Below are positions 9,380 to 38,481 of a DNA stretch of 64,000 nucleotides, one piece after another (position 1 is the first letter of the stretch; the number at the start of each line of letters is the position of its first letter). Origin of the DNA: an uncultured candidatus Brocadiaceae bacterium (GTDB lineage Bacteria; Planctomycetota; Brocadiia; SM23-32). The stretch is taken from positions 22,201 to 86,200 of the forward strand of contig CAZEAP010000010.1 of the NCBI GenBank assembly GCA_964510315.1, read 5' to 3'. Below the pieces are notes generated by a model that saw nothing but the letters and a program-made list of their open reading frames with translations, was not told the DNA's origin and made no database searches. The position numbers were made by a program, and so were the translations under genes.

Positions 9380-9484
9380 CGGCTGCCCATGCGCAGCGCA
9401 CCGAACGGCGAGATTCCCGTCGAAGGCGGGCAAGCTTCGCTCGCAGAAGAACCCGCTCGCGCAGAATGACATCCCGGGCGGTGA
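9380..9484 (+). repeat. Non-coding repeat element, copy A (core 9426-9484)
   Basis: Core ggcgggcaagcttcgctcgcagaagaacccgctcgcgcagaatgacatcccgggcggtg is about 86% identical to 23263-23320, with weaker similarity extending about 45 nt upstream. A 1-nt indel shifts the reading frame between copies, which argues against coding. Confidence 0.5.
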
Positions 9485-9759
9485 CCCGCGCGCTGTCATG
9501 CTGAGGCGCTTTTTCTTCAGGCGCCGAATGCATCTCGCTTTTCTACGGCGCCGTACTTTGGCGCCCCCGTTCCGCTTGCCCACGACGGTCCTGCTTGGCG
9601 GCGGGGCGTCCCGCGCCGCTGCCAAAGGCCCCGATACCGCCTCGGACGGACCGGCGTGCGCCAACGTTTTGGAATATGGTTTGCACCCGGTATGGGCGTG
9701 TGGCAGCTTGAAAACGCGTCAGCGCCTGTTCTCTGGCCTCTATACGCCGGTAGCCGGAA

Positions 9760-10989
9760 ATGCTGGAGAACCCCCTGAACGTTCTGCTCATCGAGGAGGA
9801 TCAAAACGATACGGAGCTGGTGCGCCAGATGATCGGCGAGGACAGCGGGGCGCCCTACCGACTGGAGTGCAGCAGTTCGATTGAGGAAGGGCTCCAGCGG
9901 CTCCGGCAAGGGAACATCCATGTTATACTCCTCGGCGTCTCCGGCCCGGGCGCCCTGGCGGCGGGAGACGTGGACACGGTGCACCGAGCCGCAGGCGGCG
10001 TCCCGATCATCGTGCTGACCAGCCTCGACGAAACGGCCGTGCTGCTGGACACCGCCCGGGGCGGGGCGGTTGATTACTTCGTCAAGAGCCGAATGAACCG
10101 GCGGGAGCTGTCCCTGGCCATCCGGTATGCCGCCGAACGGAGCAGAATCGAGGAAGCCCGCCGAGCCGCCGAAGCAAGCCTCCGCGAACTGGTCCACAGC
10201 AACTCCGACGCCATGGTGGTGGTGGATGAGGAGGGCATTGTCCAGTTCGTCAACCCCGCCGCCGAAAGACTGTTCGGCCGTGCGTTGAAGGAGTTCGTGG
10301 GAAGGCCGTTCGATTTCGACGTGGACATCGGCGATACCACCGAAGTAAAAGTAGAAACCTCGGGCGAGAAACCGGCCACCGCAGAGATGCGGGTGGTGGA
10401 GACCACGTGGGAAGGAGAGCCGGCAAAACTGGCCTCACTGCGGGACATCACCGACATCGTGCGGCTTCGCGAGAAACTGCGGGCCATGACGCTCCACGAC
10501 GAATTGACCGGCCTCTACAACCGGCGCGGCCTCATGACGCTGGCCGAGCAGCAGATCAAGCTCGCCGACCGCCGGGGCGACAGGCTGCTTTTCCTCTTCC
10601 TCGACCTCGATGGATTCAAATCGGTAAACGACCAGTACGGGCACGCCCGCGGGGATGAGGCTCTCGGAGAAGTCGCACGCGTGCTGACCGACAGCTTCAG
10701 GGAGTCCGACATCCTGGCCCGCGTGGGCGGCGACGAATTCCTGGTACTGGCCATAGGCGCCAGGAAGATGCAAGCCTCCACGCTCGCCGACCACTTCCGC
10801 CGTAAAATCAACGCCGCTCTCGCCAAATCCGACCTCCCCTGCCCACTCACCGTCAGCCTCGGGGCTGCATACCGAGAACCACGCGACGAACGCTCGATCG
10901 AGGAGCTGATTGCGCAGGCCGACGCGGCAATGTACCAGCATAAAGAGCGTACGAAGTCGGAGACTCACCCGCGAACCCGACGCGACTGA
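9760..10989 (+). CDS. Response-regulator receiver / PAS / GGDEF diguanylate cyclase
   Basis: N-terminal REC (LLIEEDQND), central PAS and C-terminal GGDEF (RVGGDEF). Its 3' end overlaps the convergent gene at 10965 by 25 nt. Confidence 0.8.
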   Translation: MLENPLNVLLIEEDQNDTELVRQMIGEDSGAPYRLECSSSIEEGLQRLRQGNIHVILLGVSGPGALAAGDVDTVHRAAGGVPIIVLTSLDETAVLLDTARGGAVDYFVKSRMNRRELSLAIRYAAERSRIEEARRAAEASLRELVHSNSDAMVVVDEEGIVQFVNPAAERLFGRALKEFVGRPFDFDVDIGDTTEVKVETSGEKPATAEMRVVETTWEGEPAKLASLRDITDIVRLREKLRAMTLHDELTGLYNRRGLMTLAEQQIKLADRRGDRLLFLFLDLDGFKSVNDQYGHARGDEALGEVARVLTDSFRESDILARVGGDEFLVLAIGARKMQASTLADHFRRKINAALAKSDLPCPLTVSLGAAYREPRDERSIEELIAQADAAMYQHKERTKSETHPRTRRD

Positions 10990-28580: not shown

Positions 28581-28656
28581 GGGCGCATAGCTCAGTGGCG
28601 AGAGCGCTACCTTCACACGGTAGAAGTCGCAGGTTCGAGTCCTGCTGCGCCCACCA
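28581..28656 (+). tRNA. tRNA-Val (anticodon CAC)
   Basis: GGGCGCA-TA-GCTCAGTGGCGAGAGC-G-CTACCttCACacGGTAG-AAGTC-GCAGGTTCGAGTCCTGC-TGCGCCC-A-CCA. Canonical 76-nt cloverleaf. Confidence 0.9.
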
Positions 28657-29835: not shown

Positions 29836-30771
29836 TCACTCGCCGGCCTCAGGCCGGTCGCGCAGCAGGGCCTCCAGGTGTTCCGGAACGTGGGTGGGCT
29901 CCTCGGGCACCGGGCATACTCGCACGCAGTCCCCGCGGACCGGGGCATGCGGCCTGCCCTCCCGCCGGCGCCGGCACAGCGTGGGATCGGTCCTCACCGG
30001 GGTATCGATGAAGATGTCCTCCCGGTCTACTTCCTCCACGAACCGATAGTCGCGGCAGGACGCATCGTCCCTGAGCGTGATGGCGTCCATGTAACAGGCT
30101 TCCAGGCAGAGCCGGCAGTCCTCGCGGAGGCAGATGGGTTCGTCAATCAACGGGTCGGGCACAAGAGGCGCTTCGGTCACGATGGAATTGAAACGCTGCC
30201 GCGGGCCGAACTCGCCCGTGAGAACGAGGTTGTTGTAGCCGAACTCGCCCAGGCCGGCGCGGGTGGCGGCGTGGCGGTGGGAGAAGGGCCCGAACGTGTA
30301 GTTGAACGGGCTGTGGCCCTCCCAGATTTCCTTGTCGCTCATGCCCTCAACGCGGGGATGTATGCCGGTGGTGGGGAAGATCATGGTTCGATAGCCGCTG
30401 CGGAGCAGAAGCTGTCCGATGACTTGGGCTATCAATTCCAGCATCACGTCGTGGAGGGCGTGCCCAACGCGGTTGTACAACAGTTCCATGTAGGGATATT
30501 TGGCGTGCTCGGGGATCATGGGCAGCTCCCGCTCGGCCAGCACCGCGGGCGCGTCCAGGACGGGTCCAAGGATGGGCTGGGCGATCGAGACGACCGACCG
30601 TGCGCCGGGCAGGAAGTCCCGGGGACGGTGCCCCTCGGGGGGCGTATCCCCCAGGGGCGGCCTCGGCTCGAAACGGTCAACGGACGCCACGCCTACCAGC
30701 GCCGCCCCGTGGTCTTTCGTTACCTCCTTGACCCTGCAGGTCAGTTCTTCGGAAGAACTCGGCTCCGTCAT
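29836..30771 (-). CDS. QueG/reductive-dehalogenase-like 4Fe-4S dicluster protein
   Basis: N-terminal domain [12 protein letters not shown], central [43 protein letters not shown] and Cys clusters [14 protein letters not shown] / CVRVCP. ATG at 30771 with GGGAGG RBS. Confidence 0.65.
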
Positions 30772-30855
30772 CTGCGCCTCCCGCCCTCTGCGCGTAGGAA
30801 TACCGCGAACCCGTGCATCATAGGGACAGCCTGGCGGCGCGGCAAGAGCGAGCCG

Positions 30856-31176
30856 CGCCACGCCGAGGCGGTTCGGGTGGAGTATGATCCTTCGAAGGTT
30901 TCCTACCGGGAGCTTCTGGACGTGTTTTGGAGCAGCCATAACCCAACGACGCCGAACCGCCAGGGATTCGACGTTGGTTCACAGTACAGATCGGCCATCT
31001 TCTACCACGACGGGAGTCAGGAGGCCGCCGCCAGGGCTTCAAAACGGGAACGGGAGCAGGCCGGAAGGTTCAGCTCGCCGATCGTGACCGAGATCGAGCC
31101 GGCATCGCGGTTCTGGCCGGCCGAAGACTACCACCAGTGCTACCTGGCCAAACGGCGAGGCGAGCCGGTGGAGTAA
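30856..31176 (+). pseudogene. msrA: 3' fragment of peptide methionine sulfoxide reductase MsrA (catalytic N-terminal half missing)
   Basis: [62 protein letters not shown]...[25 protein letters not shown] aligns with the C-terminal ~105 aa of MsrA. The GCFWG active-site region is absent in all frames, and its expected position is occupied by the minus-strand gene 29836-30771. Confidence 0.6.
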
Positions 31177-31211: not shown

Positions 31212-32750
31212 CTACTCCGAGGTATCCCGCTGGAACATCCTGGGTGTTTCGGGAGACTCGGCGAGCATCTGGGCGCCGCGCCCCACCACGGCCTGAGACA
31301 CGATGCCCTCGACGGTGCTGCCGCTGCCGATGATGCTTTCACTGACGTGACCGTCGCGCACGACGGCACCCTCCATGATGATCGAGTCGCGGACGGTTGA
31401 GTTGCCAACACTTGCTCCGGGGCCGACGTACACGTGGGGCCCAACGCGGGCACTTTCCAGGACGGCCTCTTTGGCAATCTGCGCCGGTCCCTTGATATGG
31501 GTTTCCGAATCGTGTCTGCCTCTTCGAGAGTCAACGAGAAAATGCCGATTGGCGTCGAGAAGCTTCCTCCGGGTGCCGACGTCGAACCAGGGCTCGGTCG
31601 TCAGGTGACCGGCCAGCGGGACGCCGCTGACGACCAGCCAGTGCATGAAGCTGCCGAGGCTGTACGGATCGCCGCCACCCTTGAGGTACTTCGGCAGGGA
31701 GTCAACTTCCTCCTCACGTAGGAAGTAGCAGGCGGTGCTGATGTTCAGAAACGCGGGTATTTCCTGCTTCTCCGTGAACTCGCTCACCGTTTCGTCGGAA
31801 TCGAGGGTGGCTACGCCATACTGGCTGACGTCGCTGCCCGTCTCGAACCTGTAGAGGGCATTGGCGCTGGTACCCTTGCGAGCAGCAAAACGCAGGAACT
31901 CATCCAGTGCGAAGCTAAACACGTTATCTCCGCCCAAGACGACGACATCGCGAGGTCCCTGCAGATTCACCGCGTAGTGGAGCGCTCCTATAGGTCCAAG
32001 ATTTCCGCCGGAGTCGCTCACTGGCTCGGCAATCACCTCAGCGTCCTCGGTGCCCACACGCGTGAGAAACGCACGGATATCTTCCTGAAACTCTCGGTTG
32101 GTCAAAAGGTAAGTACGACGGACGGAGCTACAGTCCCGGATAAAATCCAGGACGTAACTGAGAACAGGTTTGCCGGCAACAGGCAGCAGAACCTTGCAGA
32201 AGTCCAGCGTCAGCGGCCACAGCCGGGAACCGGAACCGCCGCAAAGCACGATGCAGTCCACATCAGGCGGGCCCGAAGCGCGAATCTTCGGAAACGCTGC
32301 AACTATTTTGGCGCGCAAGTCGTCGGGCGTGGTGAAGAAGTTCACCGTCACACGCTCGGAGACCTTGTGTCGGAACGCCTTCTGATCCTGCCAACGGCCG
32401 TCCTCGATGAGCAGGTTGGCCGGAACAGGGAAGTCTTCTGCCGACAGAAGCATAAGACAGGGCTTGGACAGCTCTTGGGCTACCTCGAACTCCAGTTCAG
32501 TGAAGCTGATCTCGGTGCCCTTCGGGCTGCTGCCGTAGCACGGCCCCAGGAGGCCGACGAAGACGTCACAGTTCCCTATCTGCTCCCGACAGTAATCGGC
32601 CGGAGTTTGGTGGTCGACCGTGAAGTCCTCCATCCGAACGCAGTGATGGCCCATGGACTTGACGGCCTTCTCTGCCGCGTCGCGGTATGCCAACAGGTCT
32701 TTGGTAGTGGAGCTGAGGAACACGGTTTTGGGGTTGTTGTCTGCAGTCAT
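31212..32750 (-). CDS. DUF4062-domain / sugar-1-phosphate nucleotidyltransferase / left-handed beta-helix fusion protein
   Basis: N-terminus KTVFLSSTTKDLLAYRDAAEKAVKSMGHHCVRMEDF...CDVFVGLLGPCYGSSPKGTEISFTELEFEVAQEL matches the DUF4062 family (VFISSTxxDLxxER ... SYTELEY). Then an NTP_transferase core (LCGGSGSRLWPLT, GGDNVF, EKQEIP, WFDVGT), then hexapeptide repeats. ATG at 32750 with GGAGA RBS. Confidence 0.7.
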   Translation of the reverse strand: MTADNNPKTVFLSSTTKDLLAYRDAAEKAVKSMGHHCVRMEDFTVDHQTPADYCREQIGNCDVFVGLLGPCYGSSPKGTEISFTELEFEVAQELSKPCLMLLSAEDFPVPANLLIEDGRWQDQKAFRHKVSERVTVNFFTTPDDLRAKIVAAFPKIRASGPPDVDCIVLCGGSGSRLWPLTLDFCKVLLPVAGKPVLSYVLDFIRDCSSVRRTYLLTNREFQEDIRAFLTRVGTEDAEVIAEPVSDSGGNLGPIGALHYAVNLQGPRDVVVLGGDNVFSFALDEFLRFAARKGTSANALYRFETGSDVSQYGVATLDSDETVSEFTEKQEIPAFLNISTACYFLREEEVDSLPKYLKGGGDPYSLGSFMHWLVVSGVPLAGHLTTEPWFDVGTRRKLLDANRHFLVDSRRGRHDSETHIKGPAQIAKEAVLESARVGPHVYVGPGASVGNSTVRDSIIMEGAVVRDGHVSESIIGSGSTVEGIVSQAVVGRGAQMLAESPETPRMFQRDTSE

Positions 32751-32853
32751 GGCTTTTCTATCTCCGGTTGCCGATCCCTCAAAAATAAGCCCGGCTAAGC
32801 CGGCTCGCGACGCCACAATGATAGCAGGAAAGTCCGTCCCGGGAAACCGGGTC

Positions 32854-35433
32854 TCACAGCTTATACACCTCCAGGCCGGCTTCTCCGAGTACTTCCGGCC
32901 AGTCCCGGACTGCCTGGCGGTCGTATTCTTTGATCTTCTCGGGTAGTTCCTCCCAGGGGACGAGATAGGGACTCACTTTGACTTTGGCGTCGCGTCGCGG
33001 ACCGTAGCTCCACCCCGCGCGGAGCCTTTCGAGAATCCAGCGCCCGTGCTCCATCTCGGCCATGGTTTCCACTTCCTCGTCGGTGAACTGCACGGAGGCG
33101 GGCTCGCCCTCGGCCTCCCCCACGCCGTATCCGATGCGGCGGAGCGTCTGCTCGGCGTAGGCGGCCTGCTGGCGGTTGGACTCTTTCAGGTCCTCGCGCA
33201 GTTCCTGCCACGGCACCATCGCCGGATCGGCACTGCGGTAGCGGTTCTCCTCCAGGAACCGCTCGTGTACGGCCTTGCCCGCCCTTTCGACCAACTCGGC
33301 GGGTATCTGCGGTGTGGCGGGATTGACGAACGCCCGAACCGCCGCCGGGTCGGGGGGCAGCCAGATCAGCCGGGAGGCCGGCCACCAGCGGCGTTCCTCT
33401 CGCAGTTCCGAAGCGCTGCGACCGCTGGACTCCACCACACCCACTGTGGCGCCGAGGGCGAGGGCCAGCCGCGCCTCAAAGCCCGTGATGGGACCGCCGT
33501 TGATCACCAGCACGCGCACGTCGGCGGGGTCGACGCCGGCCGCGATCAGGTCAATCCAGGACTGCAGCGGTTCGAGGGCGGTGAAGTCCCGCGTGTGAGG
33601 CTCCGCCCTTCCCCTTCCCATGTCGGTCGTCACCTGCACCTCGTATCCCTCGTGCAGCTTCACCTCGTCGGGGAGCGGCGGCATGAAGAAGGGCCGGTAG
33701 CCTATGCGCCGCACCTCGTCGGCCGGTCCTTCGGTGGCATCGGCGGCCAGGCCGCTGACCCCGGCCGTGGTGCCGCCACCGACGACGATGCCCCGGAACC
33801 CCTCAAACGCTTCCCGCAGCATTTCGCGGTATTGCTGCATCTCCTGTTCAACGCTGGCCGCACAGCCGCCGCTGACCATCGCGACATCGCCACTGACCGG
33901 GCTGAGGTCCGCCGATACCAGGCCCTCCAGCTCCTCCGTCCGCTCCCGTACCTCGCCGGGCATCTGTTTCTCACGCTCCGGCTCACCGCTGGCCTCCCGG
34001 CCGGCCGCCGTGACAACCACGGCAAGCAGCAGGAATCGGCGCACCGCTTCGATCGCCCAGTTCAGGTCCGCGAACGCGGGCATTTCAGGCAGCGACCGAA
34101 GGATGGGTTTCTCATAGTGCTCGACCGAGCGGAGCGCCAGGCAGATGGGCGTCGGGCTCGCACTGAGTTCGATACCCCGCGCGTAGGCGGCAAGCGCCTG
34201 GTAAGGACGGTCCAGCAGCAGGGCGAATGTCCCCATGTCGTAGAAGGCCCAGGGCAGGTAGATCTCTACCTCGGCCCAGTCCCGGCAGGTCTCCACGGCC
34301 GCCTCGAGGCTGGGGCGCATCAGCGAGATGAACTCGACGTCGCCTACGAAACCGGTCTTACACTCCAGATAGTTCGCCAGCACGTGAGCGTCACCGGGGG
34401 CGGCCTCGAAGGCGCGTTCGTAGTAGTGTAGGGCTTTTTCCGGCTCCTCCTCCCAGGTGTCCCCCAGCGCGCAGAGGGCGTCGGCATCGGTGGGGTCCAG
34501 CGCGACCGCGCGTTCCAGCTCGGCCCGGCCGCCTTCGCCGGCCTGATGTTTGGCCAGGCCGAGGTCCCGCAGGACGGGCGCGGAGCCGGAGTGACGGAAC
34601 GGCTCCAGGACTTCCATCGCCTTCTGCCAGTCTTCAAGCGAGATGGCGAGGGCGGCGATTCGGTCCGCAAGGTCCGAGTTTTCCCGGTCGTAGCGGAGCA
34701 CCATCTCCCACTTGGCTATCTCTTTGCGCATCTCCTCAGGGTCCATGTAAGCGCCGTAGTGGGATTTGTAGGCGTCCAGGGCCTCGACCGCTCGTCCGAA
34801 CTGGCCGTCCGCGTCCTCCAGGAGCGCAGCGACACGCGCCAGTTCGCGCCGGAACCTGTCCGGCACGTCGAACTCGCTCTTGTAGACCCTGTCGTGGCTG
34901 ATGCCCGCCCAGGCGTGTTGCAGGAGGGTTCGCACCTGGATCTCCGCCTTGCGTTCGCCGATCCGTTCCAGCACGTCGATCCCGCCCTTCCGGCGGCTCA
35001 CCTCCTCGATAGCCTCTTCCAGGCAGGGCCTGTCGCCGCGAAGCTGCACGACGTAATGCACGGAACGATAGCCAAACTCCTCCGGCCGCAGCCTCCGGAG
35101 CACGTCCATGCTGTTGGCTTCATCGATCCGAAAGTTCTCCCGGACGAACCGGCAGATTCGCCGGACTTCCGGCTGCGTCTGGGTGATGACGCGGGCGCCG
35201 CACAGATCGGTCATCTGGGAGACCGGGGCGCTGTAGCGGTCGCTTCTGCGGACGATCTTCTCGGCGAAGCTGGGTATGCTCTTGGCGCGGGTCTGCACGA
35301 TGCCGACCGTCTCGCAGTCCTTGCAGGCGCGGGTAAGGGCCTCCGAGAGCACATCGGCGTAGAGCACGTAACGGGGCCGCTCTTCGGAGTACCTTTCCAC
35401 CTGCCTCTCATGTTCTACCGGGTCTACAGGCAT
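32854..35433 (-). CDS. RelA/SpoT-domain (alarmone-synthetase-like) protein with TPR, LOG/SLOG-like and C-terminal RyR domains
   Basis: 859 aa, no HD hydrolase domain. N-terminal synthetase motifs TRAKSIPSFAEKIVRR, TDLCGARVI, GYRSVHYVV and EIQVRTLLQHAWAGISHDRVYK. Central TPR-like helices. A Rossmann-like region VVGGGTTAGVSGLAA...INGGPITGFEARL fits the LOG/SLOG GGGxxG / PGGxGTxxE pattern. C-terminus EHGRWILERLRAGWSYGPRRDAKVKVSPYLVPWEELPEKIKEYDRQAV matches the RyR domain (GWSYG). ATG at 35433 with GGGAG RBS. Confidence 0.7.
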   Translation of the reverse strand: MPVDPVEHERQVERYSEERPRYVLYADVLSEALTRACKDCETVGIVQTRAKSIPSFAEKIVRRSDRYSAPVSQMTDLCGARVITQTQPEVRRICRFVRENFRIDEANSMDVLRRLRPEEFGYRSVHYVVQLRGDRPCLEEAIEEVSRRKGGIDVLERIGERKAEIQVRTLLQHAWAGISHDRVYKSEFDVPDRFRRELARVAALLEDADGQFGRAVEALDAYKSHYGAYMDPEEMRKEIAKWEMVLRYDRENSDLADRIAALAISLEDWQKAMEVLEPFRHSGSAPVLRDLGLAKHQAGEGGRAELERAVALDPTDADALCALGDTWEEEPEKALHYYERAFEAAPGDAHVLANYLECKTGFVGDVEFISLMRPSLEAAVETCRDWAEVEIYLPWAFYDMGTFALLLDRPYQALAAYARGIELSASPTPICLALRSVEHYEKPILRSLPEMPAFADLNWAIEAVRRFLLLAVVVTAAGREASGEPEREKQMPGEVRERTEELEGLVSADLSPVSGDVAMVSGGCAASVEQEMQQYREMLREAFEGFRGIVVGGGTTAGVSGLAADATEGPADEVRRIGYRPFFMPPLPDEVKLHEGYEVQVTTDMGRGRAEPHTRDFTALEPLQSWIDLIAAGVDPADVRVLVINGGPITGFEARLALALGATVGVVESSGRSASELREERRWWPASRLIWLPPDPAAVRAFVNPATPQIPAELVERAGKAVHERFLEENRYRSADPAMVPWQELREDLKESNRQQAAYAEQTLRRIGYGVGEAEGEPASVQFTDEEVETMAEMEHGRWILERLRAGWSYGPRRDAKVKVSPYLVPWEELPEKIKEYDRQAVRDWPEVLGEAGLEVYKL

Positions 35434-35795: not shown

Positions 35796-36494
35796 TTACA
35801 TGGCCTCGTAAAGAACGTCCACGTGCCCATTTTGAGATGCCTCTGCCACCTCGTCCACGGCGCCCCTGTACTGCGCCAGCTTGGAGCCGCCGAAGATGCG
35901 AAACAGGACGGCGGCAAGATTGTGGTGTGTTTCGATCACAGCGTCCGGGAAATGGGATTCGCGGAGCGAGTTTTGGACGTAGAAGGCGTGGCTCTCCAGC
36001 AGCGTCATCACCGGCTGGACGGCTTGCACTTTGGCCAGGGCCTCCCGGGGGGAGCCGCCTCCTTCCGAAAGGAGGGCGGAGGCCTGCCGAATCGCCTCGT
36101 CCACGCGTTCGAATAGATTCCCGTGGTTGACGTGCTGGCCCCGGTGCACCAGTTCGTGGGCGACCACCAGTCGCAGTCCGTTCAGATTGCTCTCGTCCAC
36201 GTTCTCGCGGACCACCAGCAGCTCCGCGCTGCTGGGCTCGTATGCGGCCAGCGCATTGTTCTCCACCACGTATTCAAGCAGTCGCTCCAGCAGGCCGCGT
36301 CCGGTGTCTTCGACCGGAACCCCCGCCCCCCGCAGCCTCCCGAGTACAAGTTCCTCATAGCCCCGGTCTTTCGGGAGGACGCGCTCGCCCATGTCGTCTG
36401 CGTAAATGGCCCACTCGGTGGCTTCCTCGACCAGTGGGGCGACTTGTTCGGCCAGGCGACTCACAAGCTTTTCGGTGATGTTGATTTGGGCCAT
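35796..36494 (-). CDS. HExxH-motif putative zinc metallopeptidase
   Basis: VVAHELVHRGQH zinc-binding motif; ATG at 36494 with GGAGGA RBS. The track's longer N-terminus, starting at 36587, is unlikely. Confidence 0.5.
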   Translation of the reverse strand: MAQINITEKLVSRLAEQVAPLVEEATEWAIYADDMGERVLPKDRGYEELVLGRLRGAGVPVEDTGRGLLERLLEYVVENNALAAYEPSSAELLVVRENVDESNLNGLRLVVAHELVHRGQHVNHGNLFERVDEAIRQASALLSEGGGSPREALAKVQAVQPVMTLLESHAFYVQNSLRESHFPDAVIETHHNLAAVLFRIFGGSKLAQYRGAVDEVAEASQNGHVDVLYEAM

Positions 36495-36528
36495 TTGCTT
36501 CCTCCGCCGTGTCGGCGGGTTCGAGGTC

Positions 36529-38481
36529 TCAGAATGCGGGCACGGCGCCGCGGGTGACGGTCCGGACCAGCGTGGAGATTCCACCAACTGACGCCTCGGC
36601 GACGATAAGGGCTATGAAGAAGTAGCGCGCCTGACGCAGTTTCCCCCCGCCGAACAGCTTCATGATTCCCATCTTGCAGAGCCATCCCAGCAAGAAGGGG
36701 AACCATAACCTGTGGGCGTGCCAGCTATGGCACGACAGCAGGCCGATGGCGTGAATCGGCCACCAGTAGAACCGGGCGCGCATGTACATAAAGAACGTCA
36801 TGCCGCCGGCCCCCAGCAGCAGCGACTTGGGGTATGCCTTGGCGGCCGCGGAGCCCTGCTTTATGATGCGCTGAGCCGAGTCCATGCGCCACTTCGGTTC
36901 CGCAGTCTGCGCCCACCAGTCCGAATAGTTCGCGCCCCCCATGCGGTAGGCCGTGTTCAGGGAGGTCCACGTCCCGCAGAGAAGCGCCACCAGGAAGGCC
37001 ACCATCAGGATGGGGACGAGGAGACGACGTTTGGCGGGCTTGAAAACGTCGGAGATGCGGAAGGCGTTGATGGCCATGGGCGCCAGGTAGGCGGTGCCGC
37101 CGGTGATCAGCAGAGGGTCCTGAAGATTCGTGATGACCGCCCCGGCCGGTCCCAGCGCCCGGCCTCCCGTTATGCCATGGATGAATTCCGGCAGGCGCCA
37201 GGTCGTCCTCGCCACGTAGAGTCCCGCCTGGGCGACCACGCGCGCGTAAACCAGGTACCAACAGATGATCATCGCGAAGGCGGCAACCGCCGCCGGCCAC
37301 CGCATGCCGTGGTAGGCATACCATCCGAGGCATGCCCCCAGCGTGACGAGAGAACCCCAGAACCCCAGGCGGTAGCCGACCGGCTCACCGCTGTCGTCGG
37401 CGTCCTTCAGGCCGAGGGCCTTCCGCAGCACCACCCACAGGTGCCGGCGGGCCATGAACAGTATTCCGGCGGTGAAAGCGATGTAAGCGCCGGCCTGCTG
37501 CCAACGCATCAGCGGTTTGCGCAGATGCCCCAGCCCCAGGTAGTGGGCCGTCTGCAGTTCCATCCTGGCGACCAGGTAGAAGACCCAGATGCTCAGCGAG
37601 ACGTCGGCGGGCACAAGGAACGCGAAGCCCACCGCGGAGGTCCACAGGTTGAAGTTCTGAAAACCCATCGGCTCCAGGGGCGTTCCCGCCAGCGCGTCCT
37701 TTATCGGGAGGGGGATATGGAACGCGGGACCGGCGCCGAAGATGACGGGCAGCGCCCTGATGAAACGGAAGCTGAGCGCGAAGACCAGCCCGACGATGAA
37801 GCCCTTCTGGGTGAACGCGGCGGGAAGCCAGCGGCGTTCCGCGCTGCCCTGGGTGAACTCCAGGGGCACGCGGGCCAGTGGAAACATCAGTCGCTCCGAC
37901 TCCACCCACTGCCGGCGCAGGATTCCCATCAGGAAGAAGATGAACAGGTACAGGGCGATGAAGAAGACGCCCCAGTGGATCAGCGGTCGCATCCAGCGTC
38001 CCCACGGCACCCGCTCCCATCCGCCCTTGAAATAGCGGGCGGCCGCCACGGAGCGCGGGTCGTTGCTCAACACCAGCTCTTCGGGCGCGTGGGTCAGCGC
38101 GCCGTCGTCCTCCCAGGCGACGTCCGCGCGCCGGGCGAGATACGACGGAGCCGCCGTAAAGGAAAACCAGAAGCGGGCCAGCCCGTCGCCCGGGAACGTG
38201 GCTCCGACGATCAGCATGCACCAGACCAGCATCAACTCCGCCTGGCTCAGCTCCCAGCCGCGTCGGACCAGCTTGATCAGGAGGTTCACTCCCACCGTCA
38301 GTATGACCAGCACGAGCACTGCCCCGCCGGGGAAGGCCGTCCCGCTGAAACCGCCCCATCCCTTGGCCCAGCTCACCCAGGGCTCGAGCAGTGCTATGCC
38401 CGCCACGAAGAAAAGGCCGATGAGGAAGGCCCGCCAGGTCACGATGCGCTCCGCGATTTGTGGTGGATCGTCCGGGGTCAA
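36529..38481 (-). CDS. Large polytopic membrane protein of unknown function
   Basis: 650 aa and more than 12 predicted TM helices by hydrophobic-segment inspection. No recognisable catalytic motif. Confidence 0.55.
   Translation of the reverse strand: MTPDDPPQIAERIVTWRAFLIGLFFVAGIALLEPWVSWAKGWGGFSGTAFPGGAVLVLVILTVGVNLLIKLVRRGWELSQAELMLVWCMLIVGATFPGDGLARFWFSFTAAPSYLARRADVAWEDDGALTHAPEELVLSNDPRSVAAARYFKGGWERVPWGRWMRPLIHWGVFFIALYLFIFFLMGILRRQWVESERLMFPLARVPLEFTQGSAERRWLPAAFTQKGFIVGLVFALSFRFIRALPVIFGAGPAFHIPLPIKDALAGTPLEPMGFQNFNLWTSAVGFAFLVPADVSLSIWVFYLVARMELQTAHYLGLGHLRKPLMRWQQAGAYIAFTAGILFMARRHLWVVLRKALGLKDADDSGEPVGYRLGFWGSLVTLGACLGWYAYHGMRWPAAVAAFAMIICWYLVYARVVAQAGLYVARTTWRLPEFIHGITGGRALGPAGAVITNLQDPLLITGGTAYLAPMAINAFRISDVFKPAKRRLLVPILMVAFLVALLCGTWTSLNTAYRMGGANYSDWWAQTAEPKWRMDSAQRIIKQGSAAAKAYPKSLLLGAGGMTFFMYMRARFYWWPIHAIGLLSCHSWHAHRLWFPFLLGWLCKMGIMKLFGGGKLRQARYFFIALIVAEASVGGISTLVRTVTRGAVPAF

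Follow-up and report, generated by a model that had tools for sequence, protein, structure and literature searches.

The DUF4062 family was renamed NIR and shown to be a TIR-like NAD+ hydrolase in three preprints of 2026 (10.64898/2026.05.01.722283, 10.64898/2026.06.25.731849, 10.64898/2026.09.04.749371; below, the 2026 NIR preprints), which took it from a family without a function to a widespread NAD+-depleting effector common to bacteria and human TEP1. According to these preprints, the anti-phage systems Avs2, Vulcan, Vesta, Swarozyc, and Evangelion use NIR for killing, as their effector, and NIR is active in TEP1 too; it usually occupies the N terminus, with a variable sensor or AUX region attached to it, and splits NAD+ into ADP-ribose plus nicotinamide, a reaction requiring a single conserved glutamate whose equivalents are essential in PsAvs2 (E108), Vulcan (E98), VstA (E103), and TEP1 (E1008). 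In Swarozyc, Evangelion, and Vulcan, the C-terminal region is needed for sensing or activation and the outcome is NAD+ depletion (2026 NIR preprints). Activation of NIR effectors depends, in other words, on the module to which they are fused. Here, we describe a gene in which that module is a sugar-1-phosphate nucleotidyltransferase with a left-handed beta-helix (LbH) tail. It lies at 31212..32750 on the reverse strand of a 64,000-nucleotide stretch of DNA (the window) from an uncultured candidatus Brocadiaceae bacterium (contig CAZEAP010000010.1, positions 22,201 to 86,200).

Pyrophosphorylases of this class were not found in any immune system within the searched literature and defence-model libraries. 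In the family described here, the enzyme module keeps its whole active site and has repeatedly been fused to death or effector modules, of five different kinds. From sequence, structure models, and analogy, we give an even chance to the reading that the gene encodes a horizontally acquired, self-contained, single-chain protein of the immune type, with a new core module and an abortive-infection outcome. The logic of an effector placed on a core is already known; the new part would be the core beneath the NIR or TIR effector, apparently an active enzyme of metabolic type.

Results

Architecture of the fusion protein

The features of the gene, all on the reverse strand, are as follows.

31212..32750, reverse strand: whole gene of the DUF4062(NIR)-NTP_transferase-LbH fusion, 512 codons and a TAG stop (open reading frame list, Pfam, codon check)
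32277..32750, reverse strand: complete TIR-like NIR/DUF4062 domain, residues 1-158, five beta-strands alternating with helices (Pfam, AlphaFold2, Foldseek, phmmer)
32478..32723, reverse strand: Pfam DUF4062 core, residues 10-91 (Pfam)
32490..32492, reverse strand: codon for E87, predicted to be the catalytic glutamate of the NADase domain, in the motif SFTELE87FEVA (invariance and KpSwz alignment)
31539..32261, reverse strand: sugar-1-phosphate nucleotidyltransferase, Rossmann-like, residues 164-404 (Pfam, VTC1 alignment)
32208..32240, reverse strand: GGSGSRLWPLT, residues 171-181, matching the signature G-G-x-G-x-R-L-x-P-L-T
31260..31538, reverse strand: left-handed beta-helix (hexapeptide) tail, residues 405-497 (AlphaFold2, Foldseek, weak Pfam LbH_GLGC)
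32761..32765, reverse strand: Shine-Dalgarno sequence GGAGA, 10 nt before the ATG (read from the sequence, at pattern level only)

In the six-frame list the gene is enclosed by an open reading frame at 31212..32816 on the reverse strand. Translation very probably begins with the ATG at 32750, because GGAGA lies 10 nt 5' of it and all homologues have an equivalent start, their N termini reading M-x(2-13)-VFLSST. The coordinates 31212..32750 were confirmed codon by codon, and the exact protein is present in the public protein collection (P0001, on a 104.6-kb contig). Its 512 residues fall into three parts, DUF4062, NTP_transferase, and the LbH tail, with the motifs VFLSSTTKDL, FTELEFEVAQEL, GGSGSRLWPLT, and WFDVGT; no P-loop NTPase domain was found in it by Pfam. 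The whole-protein AlphaFold2 model, built from an 85-sequence alignment, is confident along the full length (mean pLDDT 93.2, pTM 0.86) and runs from a beta-alpha N-terminal domain through a Rossmann-like middle to short strands at the C terminus.

An earlier note on this stretch, made from its letters alone, had proposed this fusion, with the same coordinates, and left the role of DUF4062 open. The fusion holds, and the role is open no longer, NIR being an NAD+ hydrolase immune effector (2026 NIR preprints). The note's assignment of the N terminus to DUF4062 is borne out by Pfam, and its remark that this domain is usually an N-terminal module of large NTPases agrees with the NLR-like proteins in the public protein collection and with the literature. 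Of the motifs that it listed, VFLSSTTKDL, GGSGSRLWPLT, and WFDVGT are present, while its "EKP" is in fact EKQ. Its description of the nucleotidyltransferase as intact and of the tail as hexapeptide repeats agrees with the Pfam, alignment, and structure results given below.

The N-terminal domain is a predicted NADase

Pfam PF13271 (DUF4062) matches at an E value of 4.6e-22 and 78.5 bits against a gathering cutoff of 24.7, over positions 2-82 of the 82-position profile. The AlphaFold2 model of residues 1-160 (pLDDT 90.4) has a beta-alpha repeat topology, and its best Foldseek matches are TIR domains (RPS4, SARM1, TIR-STING, SPARTA), CMP N-glycosidase, and DNPH1 (E values from 8e-5 to 1e-3, TM scores of about 0.55-0.6), the same set as that given in the 2026 NIR preprints. 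A TIR-like flavodoxin-type fold is present in the N-terminal domain as modeled.

By phmmer, residues 9-102 align to the solved DUF4062 chain of KpSwz. In that alignment, E87 falls on the single alanine of the deposited KpSwz E97A chain (SFTEK-A-FDYA against SFTEL-E-FEVA, chain index 84), and E87 is invariant in all 28 aligned DUF4062 domains. Because of this invariance and the match to the position of KpSwz E97, the catalytic glutamate of an NADase is present and the corresponding activity is predicted; KpSwz was aligned directly, and the equivalence of E87 to the glutamates of PsAvs2, Vulcan, VstA, and TEP1 is taken from the papers. The glutamate and other core residues of DUF4062 are kept among members only 33-56% identical, which argues that the domain is under selection. 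Identity of the window's DUF4062 is 38-47% to the DUF4062 of NLR, NACHT, NB-ARC, TPR, or FGE-type proteins and 36-49% to that of its own family, plus one NIR-like outlier at 23%. Since it is equally similar to both groups, the N-terminal domain is, on sequence comparison, a shuffled effector module.

The nucleotidyltransferase appears complete and ends in a beta-helix

Pfam PF00483 (NTP_transferase) covers residues 167-403 at an E value of 2e-27, over positions 3-241 of 245 and so near full length. A residue-by-residue alignment to Arabidopsis VTC1 pairs R176 and K186 (in the N-terminal loop), the metal-binding D275 (in GGDN, with N276 following it), E327, K328, and D390 (in WFDVGT, W388-F-D390-V-G-T). 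Across the 36 fused relatives and the 21 stand-alone ones that were aligned, the catalytic and ligand positions are 100% conserved, and since all of them are kept, the enzyme looks complete, with no decay to a pseudo-enzyme. The "EKP"-type motif reads E327-K328-Q329; at position 329, glutamine is the commonest residue in the fused clade and proline dominates in the stand-alone relatives. By score, the enzyme is not a member of any substrate-defined family (RmlA, ManC, GlgC, GalU, GlmU, and others), its best scores against the NCBIfam equivalogs being far under their cutoffs (rmlA_long, 111.4 against 320.25; man1P_GTase, 106.6 against 440; Arch_glmU, 96.3 against 292.1).

The tail is seen as short strands at about residues 410-496 of the AlphaFold2 model, with a pLDDT of 96-99 to about residue 490. 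Pfam LbH_GLGC matches residues 444-484 below threshold (E value, 5.5e-4), and precomputed GMPPB_C matches are found on all homologues. Foldseek returned LbH-bearing enzymes, namely, VTC1 (including VTC1-KJC2), human GMPPB/GMPPA, Sulfolobus ST0452, and GlgC, with 347-447 aligned columns among the top 50 matches and E values down to 8e-21, at identities of only 16-23%; eIF2B-gamma is also matched by phmmer. In this class of enzymes, the LbH tail is the usual oligomerization element, nucleotidyltransferase-LbH proteins being obligate oligomers through the beta-helix, and GlgC, GMPPA/GMPPB, and eIF2B subunits are allosterically controlled or serve as ligand sensors or regulatory scaffolds.

A rare family with exchangeable N-terminal domains

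A word-indexed search of 5.8 billion clusters gave 15 same-length clusters with DUF4062 and the enzyme, plus a NIR-like variant (P0025), and two further fused members (P0121 and P0123) came from searching with a profile of the enzyme half. An exhaustive HMMER search with the C-terminal profile found about 17 sequences above about 345 bits among 1.84 billion representatives; below the fused clade, the scores shade into those of stand-alone enzymes, which reach 300 bits at most. A metagenome scan added six new loci, a seventh (L018) lying on the contig of L007. The fused clade is very rare and its distribution patchy. Family loci were not found in a scan of viral contigs, and tblastn against plasmid and phage collections gave only stand-alone nucleotidyltransferase matches, the full-length fusion not being found. 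Among GTDB species genomes, the pattern DC[IV][VI]LCGGx[AS], which the window's own GGSG does not fit, gave one unrelated alphaproteobacterial locus, so that this search does not show the family to be missing from GTDB or cultured genomes. The architecture is not described in the literature searched on DUF4062, TIR surveys, and EADs; a literature search for "HD-CE" returned unrelated papers only. The earlier note knew of no characterized example, and none was found in the searched literature, in PADLOC, or in the plasmid and phage collections; equally, an architecture common in a conserved cell-wall sugar context, which it named as contrary to its proposal, is not what these counts and the unshared neighbors (see below) describe.

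The N-terminal domain of the enzyme clade varies. DUF4062 is in the majority, and the other types are TIR_2, CHAT (a caspase-like protease), EAD7 (a nonenzymatic death-like adaptor), HD-CE (an HD phosphohydrolase-type domain), two unassigned, and none; in P0203, DUF4062 is not detectable at the N terminus. In a rough neighbor-joining tree, these types are interleaved, and two fusions, P0239 with TIR and P0209 with HD-CE, branch separately within the stand-alone group. Because these two arise separately there, fusion to effector-type domains appears to have occurred at least three times independently. In the work in which EADs were defined, N termini of the same kinds (EADs, TIR, caspase, phosphoesterases) are described as replacing one another before a constant STAND-NTPase core (Kaur et al. 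2020/2021), and comparable effector exchange is described in Avs and in single-chain NIR+AUX proteins (2026 NIR preprints). As in the effector-swapping systems of Kaur et al. 2020/2021, homologous cores carry alternative effector or EAD N termini; those systems are also marked by an NTPase core (STAND, MoxR, or GTPase) with partner genes, and here Pfam shows no P-loop NTPase domain and the examined loci show no conserved partner. Since the N-terminal domain varies here in the same way as on STAND-NTPase cores, the pyrophosphorylase-LbH module is, by analogy, probably the constant core and DUF4062 the exchangeable effector.

The enzyme module belongs to a subfamily with GGYAxRLWP(L/I)T instead of the usual GGxGTRL, whose nearest stand-alone members are proteins of 320-350 aa (P0211-P0228 and P0124-P0130). 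As the TIR (P0239) and HD-CE (P0209) fusions arise independently within it, this subfamily may itself be linked to conflict systems.

Genomic context of the homologues

Context was read from gene tables for 10 distinct homologue contigs (DNA for 8) and from four further distinct metagenome-scan loci. All-against-all BLASTP of open reading frames from the window and eight homologue loci turned up no conserved neighbor, nor did the gene tables of the remaining contigs, and because no neighbor is shared across loci, the fusion gene is, on this evidence, a single-gene unit. A PilB/T2SSE-like ATPase downstream in both L001 and L004 (33% identity over 149 aa) is absent elsewhere and was judged coincidental.

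Defence-like or mobile neighbors occur in the window and at L007/L020, L016, L013, and L005, a sample too small for statistics; they are absent from L001, L003, L004, L011, L012, and two contigs known by gene tables only. The CHAT version adjoins KilA-N and YhcG genes matching PDC-S22 and PDC-S02, a TIR protein lies 3 kb from P0026, and an NB-ARC-TPR gene lies 8 kb from the TIR-fused P0021 at L005. At L016 (WBZU01002099.1), the region around P0009 is, by gene content, a mobile, defence-like cluster with the following features.

L016 1606..3558, forward strand: 650-aa protein without a Pfam match, immediately downstream of P0009, with a distant DUF4062-like N terminus (hhalign E value, 5e-5; TEHE motif)
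L016 4156..8530: IS66 genes (TnpB and transposase) together with three tyrosine recombinases, beyond the 650-aa gene

Taken together, the contexts suggest a modest defence association of a horizontally moving single-gene unit.

Several further neighbors deserve a record. Directly downstream of P0021 and on the same strand (L005 9609..11735, forward) stand three genes that form a GTP-consuming set, for RibD_C, GTP cyclohydrolase II, and a short-chain dehydrogenase; in this one genome, they could share an operon with the fused gene. At two loci, the fused gene has a further, stand-alone NTP_transferase+LbH gene 2-6 kb away (L003 1589..2623, forward; P0019 contig 9424..10440, forward), the L003 copy being about 24% identical to the fused gene, and at L003 a phosphomannomutase gene lies about 1 kb upstream; these may be coincidence or a hint of the ligand. 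DegT and acetyltransferase genes lie within a few kilobases of the homologue at L004. An RtcR/PspF-like sigma54 activator with HTH_8 is encoded upstream at L011 (1513..2946, forward; PADLOC RtcR_PspF2 model, E value of 1e-18) and a TPR+HTH_8 protein downstream at L001 (8630..10132, forward), and these regulators are not conserved at the other examined loci.

Surroundings of the gene in the window

The GC content of the target gene, 0.602, is the lowest of 31 window genes (mean, 0.657; standard deviation, 0.020; z = -2.7), both flanking genes being typical. Because it is the strongest GC outlier in the window, horizontal acquisition is the best reading of its composition. Its flanks hold a RelA/SpoT-type gene, an msrA fragment, and an RDH/QueG-like gene, not a sugar-activation or glycan operon, and the remainder of the window is chromosomal housekeeping, with glycosyltransferase-like and glycogen genes elsewhere in it. 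The host is an uncultured member of the Planctomycetota, and the best named relatives of its GluRS are 63-69% identical.

32854..35433, reverse strand: RelA/SpoT-TPR-SLOG-RyR protein, 859 aa, directly upstream of the target (Pfam, PADLOC)
32791..32803, reverse strand: terminator-like hairpin CCGGCTTAGCCGG and T-run after the RelA/SpoT gene, the hairpin and Shine-Dalgarno region together spanning 32761..32803 (consensus scan, pattern level)
about 30853..31176, forward strand: msrA 3' fragment, its protein letters ending in YHQCYL, with the N-terminal GCFWG part in no frame

The 859-aa neighbor combines a RelA/SpoT synthetase (residues 48-187), TPR repeats, a weak LSDAT_prok (SLOG) match, and, at the C terminus, an RyR domain; the PADLOC candidate PDC-S33 is matched by the RelA/SpoT portion. 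It looks, from its domains, like an independent nucleotide-centered conflict or signaling protein. Upstream of its gene and on the same strand lie a protein of 263 aa that carries an HExxH motif (VVAHELVHRGQH) and matches no Pfam family (35796..36587, reverse) and a 650-aa multipass membrane protein without a PADLOC match (36529..38481, reverse).

The msrA fragment is, from its missing N-terminal part, a pseudogene remnant. It is convergent with the target, ends 36 nt from the target stop, and on its other side overlaps the start of the RDH/QueG-like Fe-S gene (29836..30939, reverse), an arrangement that suggests a past rearrangement at this site. A tRNA-Val (28581..28656, forward) lies 2.5 kb from the target; an island integrated at this tRNA was considered and rejected, as 28.4-42 kb of the window holds no tRNA-derived direct repeat and only chance-level repeats.

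Discussion

How the protein might work

TIR and NIR NADases need oligomerization, caspase-like proteases need dimerization, and death-like adaptors need a platform. Because all of the N-terminal types found here act when brought together, and because nucleotidyltransferase-LbH proteins are oligomeric and in several cases allosterically controlled or ligand-sensing, the two halves of the protein can be joined in an oligomer switch. The pyrophosphorylase module would be the constant core, serving as STAND NTPases or AUX domains do in Avs, Swarozyc, Evangelion, and Vulcan. It would bind or turn over a nucleotide, sugar-phosphate, or nucleotide-sugar whose level shifts during phage infection or, alternatively, would itself be bound by a phage protein; changes in the beta-helix-mediated oligomer would then bring the N-terminal domains together, and their proximity would turn on the NADase, so that NAD+ would be hydrolyzed into nicotinamide and ADP-ribose; growth of the infected cell would then cease, as in abortive infection.

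Several observations weigh against an immune protein of this kind. Catalytic residues conserved without exception are to be expected of a working enzyme at least as much as of a pure sensor, and, by analogy, the enzyme of the EAD7 version could equally be a recruited effector and not the core. Most homologue neighborhoods are made up of ordinary metabolic or housekeeping genes, and enrichment in defence islands is weak. The fusion protein has no match in PADLOC, a library from 2023 that is older than the named NIR systems, and the nearest stand-alone relatives (in Blastocatellia, DPANN archaea, and haloarchaeal plasmids) are named only "NDP-sugar synthase."

A bolder version of the idea, which we hold only tentatively and as clearly less probable than the general reading, is that the catalytically active pyrophosphorylase is itself an enzymatic infection sensor. 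It would bind or turn over a nucleotide or sugar-phosphate that is specific to the phage or altered by infection, and the oligomer driven by its beta-helix would be a STAND-independent "mini-inflammasome," activating any proximity-dependent effector that is fused to it (NIR or TIR NADase, CHAT protease, HD-CE) or recruited through EAD7. If that were true, such a sensor would tie nucleotide-sugar metabolism directly to abortive infection.

Alternative explanations

The strict conservation of the catalytic residues also admits the converse arrangement, in which the pyrophosphorylase is the effector or a co-effector, draining an NTP or sugar-1-phosphate pool or making a toxic or phage-blocking nucleotide-sugar. 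It may consume a phage-specific modified NTP, with DUF4062, TIR, CHAT, or HD-CE as second effectors and an unlinked sensor reached through homotypic contacts of the EAD7 or TIR type. Immune systems are known to deplete nucleotide pools, and one fused form joins EAD7 to the enzyme, EAD7 in published conflict systems mainly recruiting effectors to a core encoded elsewhere. Such an explanation is nonetheless unlikely in our estimate, though the strongest of those competing with a sensor core: no partner gene is conserved beside any examined member, a two-effector protein without a sensor would be unusual, and a variable N terminus before a constant C-terminal module is the described pattern of effectors on sensor cores. 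Improbable, and rated below the effector explanation, is a bifunctional metabolic or signaling enzyme outside immunity, in which the product of the nucleotidyltransferase is processed by a TIR- or nucleoside 2-deoxyribosyltransferase-like N-glycosidase domain, or the reverse. Both domains appear catalytically competent from their residues, the DUF4062 superfamily includes nucleoside 2-deoxyribosyltransferases and CMP N-glycosidase, and sugar-pathway genes lie within a few kilobases at some loci (L003, L004, and the P0019 contig). These genes are, however, neither adjacent nor conserved, nor are they oriented alike as in an operon; the architecture is patchy in its distribution and extremely rare, and the target stands out by its GC content; and the same clade bears a caspase-like protease, an HD-type domain, and a nonenzymatic adaptor, which share no common substrate logic. 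A dedicated hand-off between nucleotide-sugar synthesis and an N-glycosidase is unlikely because neither a protease nor an adaptor could play any part in it. Of the two possibilities raised by the earlier note, coupling of the product to DUF4062 chemistry therefore loses ground, with CHAT, HD-CE, TIR, and EAD7 on one clade, and the regulatory role fits better.

The upstream gene offers a two-gene system, in which an alarmone made on infection by the RelA/SpoT-TPR-SLOG-RyR protein would be bound by the nucleotidyltransferase domain and so switch on the NADase. The two genes share a strand and are separated by a gap of 103 nt, and the neighbor brings a nucleotide synthetase, predicted nucleotide-binding SLOG and RyR domains, and its match to a PADLOC candidate. 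Yet the hairpin and T-run stand between the genes, their GC contents differ (0.667, typical of the window, for the neighbor against 0.602 for the target), the neighbor already has sensor-like domains of its own, and in the context sample no RelA/SpoT gene lies beside any homologue, the three closest (54-56% identity) included. We regard the pairing as very improbable, and the co-occurrence that the earlier note had suggested checking is not seen on the examined homologue contigs; of the two genes, only the target is a GC outlier. Least probable of all, and hardly to be expected, is that the gene encodes an ordinary NDP-sugar pyrophosphorylase of the cell envelope, whose added N-terminal domain is inert or decaying. 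JGI labels several members "glucose-1-phosphate thymidylyltransferase," and the glycosyltransferase-like and glycogen genes of the window could be cited in its favor, but the scores far under every NCBIfam equivalog cutoff (111 against 320 for rmlA_long, 107 against 440 for man1P) and the selection visible on the DUF4062 glutamate and core speak against it.

Of these explanations, a single-chain immune protein with the pyrophosphorylase as its core is the one that we favor. If the sensor reading is true, infection would be detected in a new way, through nucleotide-sugar or NTP chemistry, in a compact single-gene system; if the effector reading is true, nucleotide-sugar synthesis or NTP consumption would be added to the antiviral chemistries.

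Comparison with known systems

The protein resembles Swarozyc (KpSwz), Evangelion (Eva01), and Vulcan in having, in one chain, an N-terminal NIR with the catalytic glutamate and a different C-terminal region, and in being a patchily distributed single-gene unit. It differs in what follows the NIR, which is a helical AUX region that binds the phage portal in KpSwz, an Eva-specific AUX region in Eva01, and HEAT repeats in Vulcan, and is here an NDP-sugar pyrophosphorylase with an LbH tail. The likeness to KpSwz is confined to the DUF4062 core, residues 9-102. Because the C-terminal regions are unrelated, the window protein is, by sequence, not a member of Swarozyc, Evangelion, or Vulcan.

With Avs2 and NLR-like STAND NTPases, the family shares an exchangeable N-terminal effector or adaptor, drawn from the same domain repertoire, on a constant core; unlike them, it has neither a STAND/P-loop NTPase nor C-terminal repeat sensors, the core being a Rossmann-like nucleotidyltransferase with a beta-helix. 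That core has its best sequence and fold matches (residues 164-497) in VTC1, GMPPB (with its regulatory paralogue GMPPA), ST0452, and GlgC, with which it shares the catalytic motifs and the nucleotidyltransferase-LbH build. It is, however, only 16-23% identical to them and belongs to the distinct GGYAxRLWP(L/I)T subfamily, and none of those enzymes is known to carry an N-terminal NADase, TIR domain, or protease.

TIR-STING, TIR-SAVED, and the TIR-APAZ protein of SPARTA are comparable in joining a TIR-type NADase to a nucleotide- or ligand-binding module, and in them ligand-driven oligomerization activates NAD+ cleavage. No partner enzyme for a signal, such as those systems have, is encoded near the window gene. 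Their modules (STING, SAVED, and APAZ/Ago) are noncatalytic receptors for partner-made signals, whereas the module joined to the NIR domain here carries a full catalytic site of its own.

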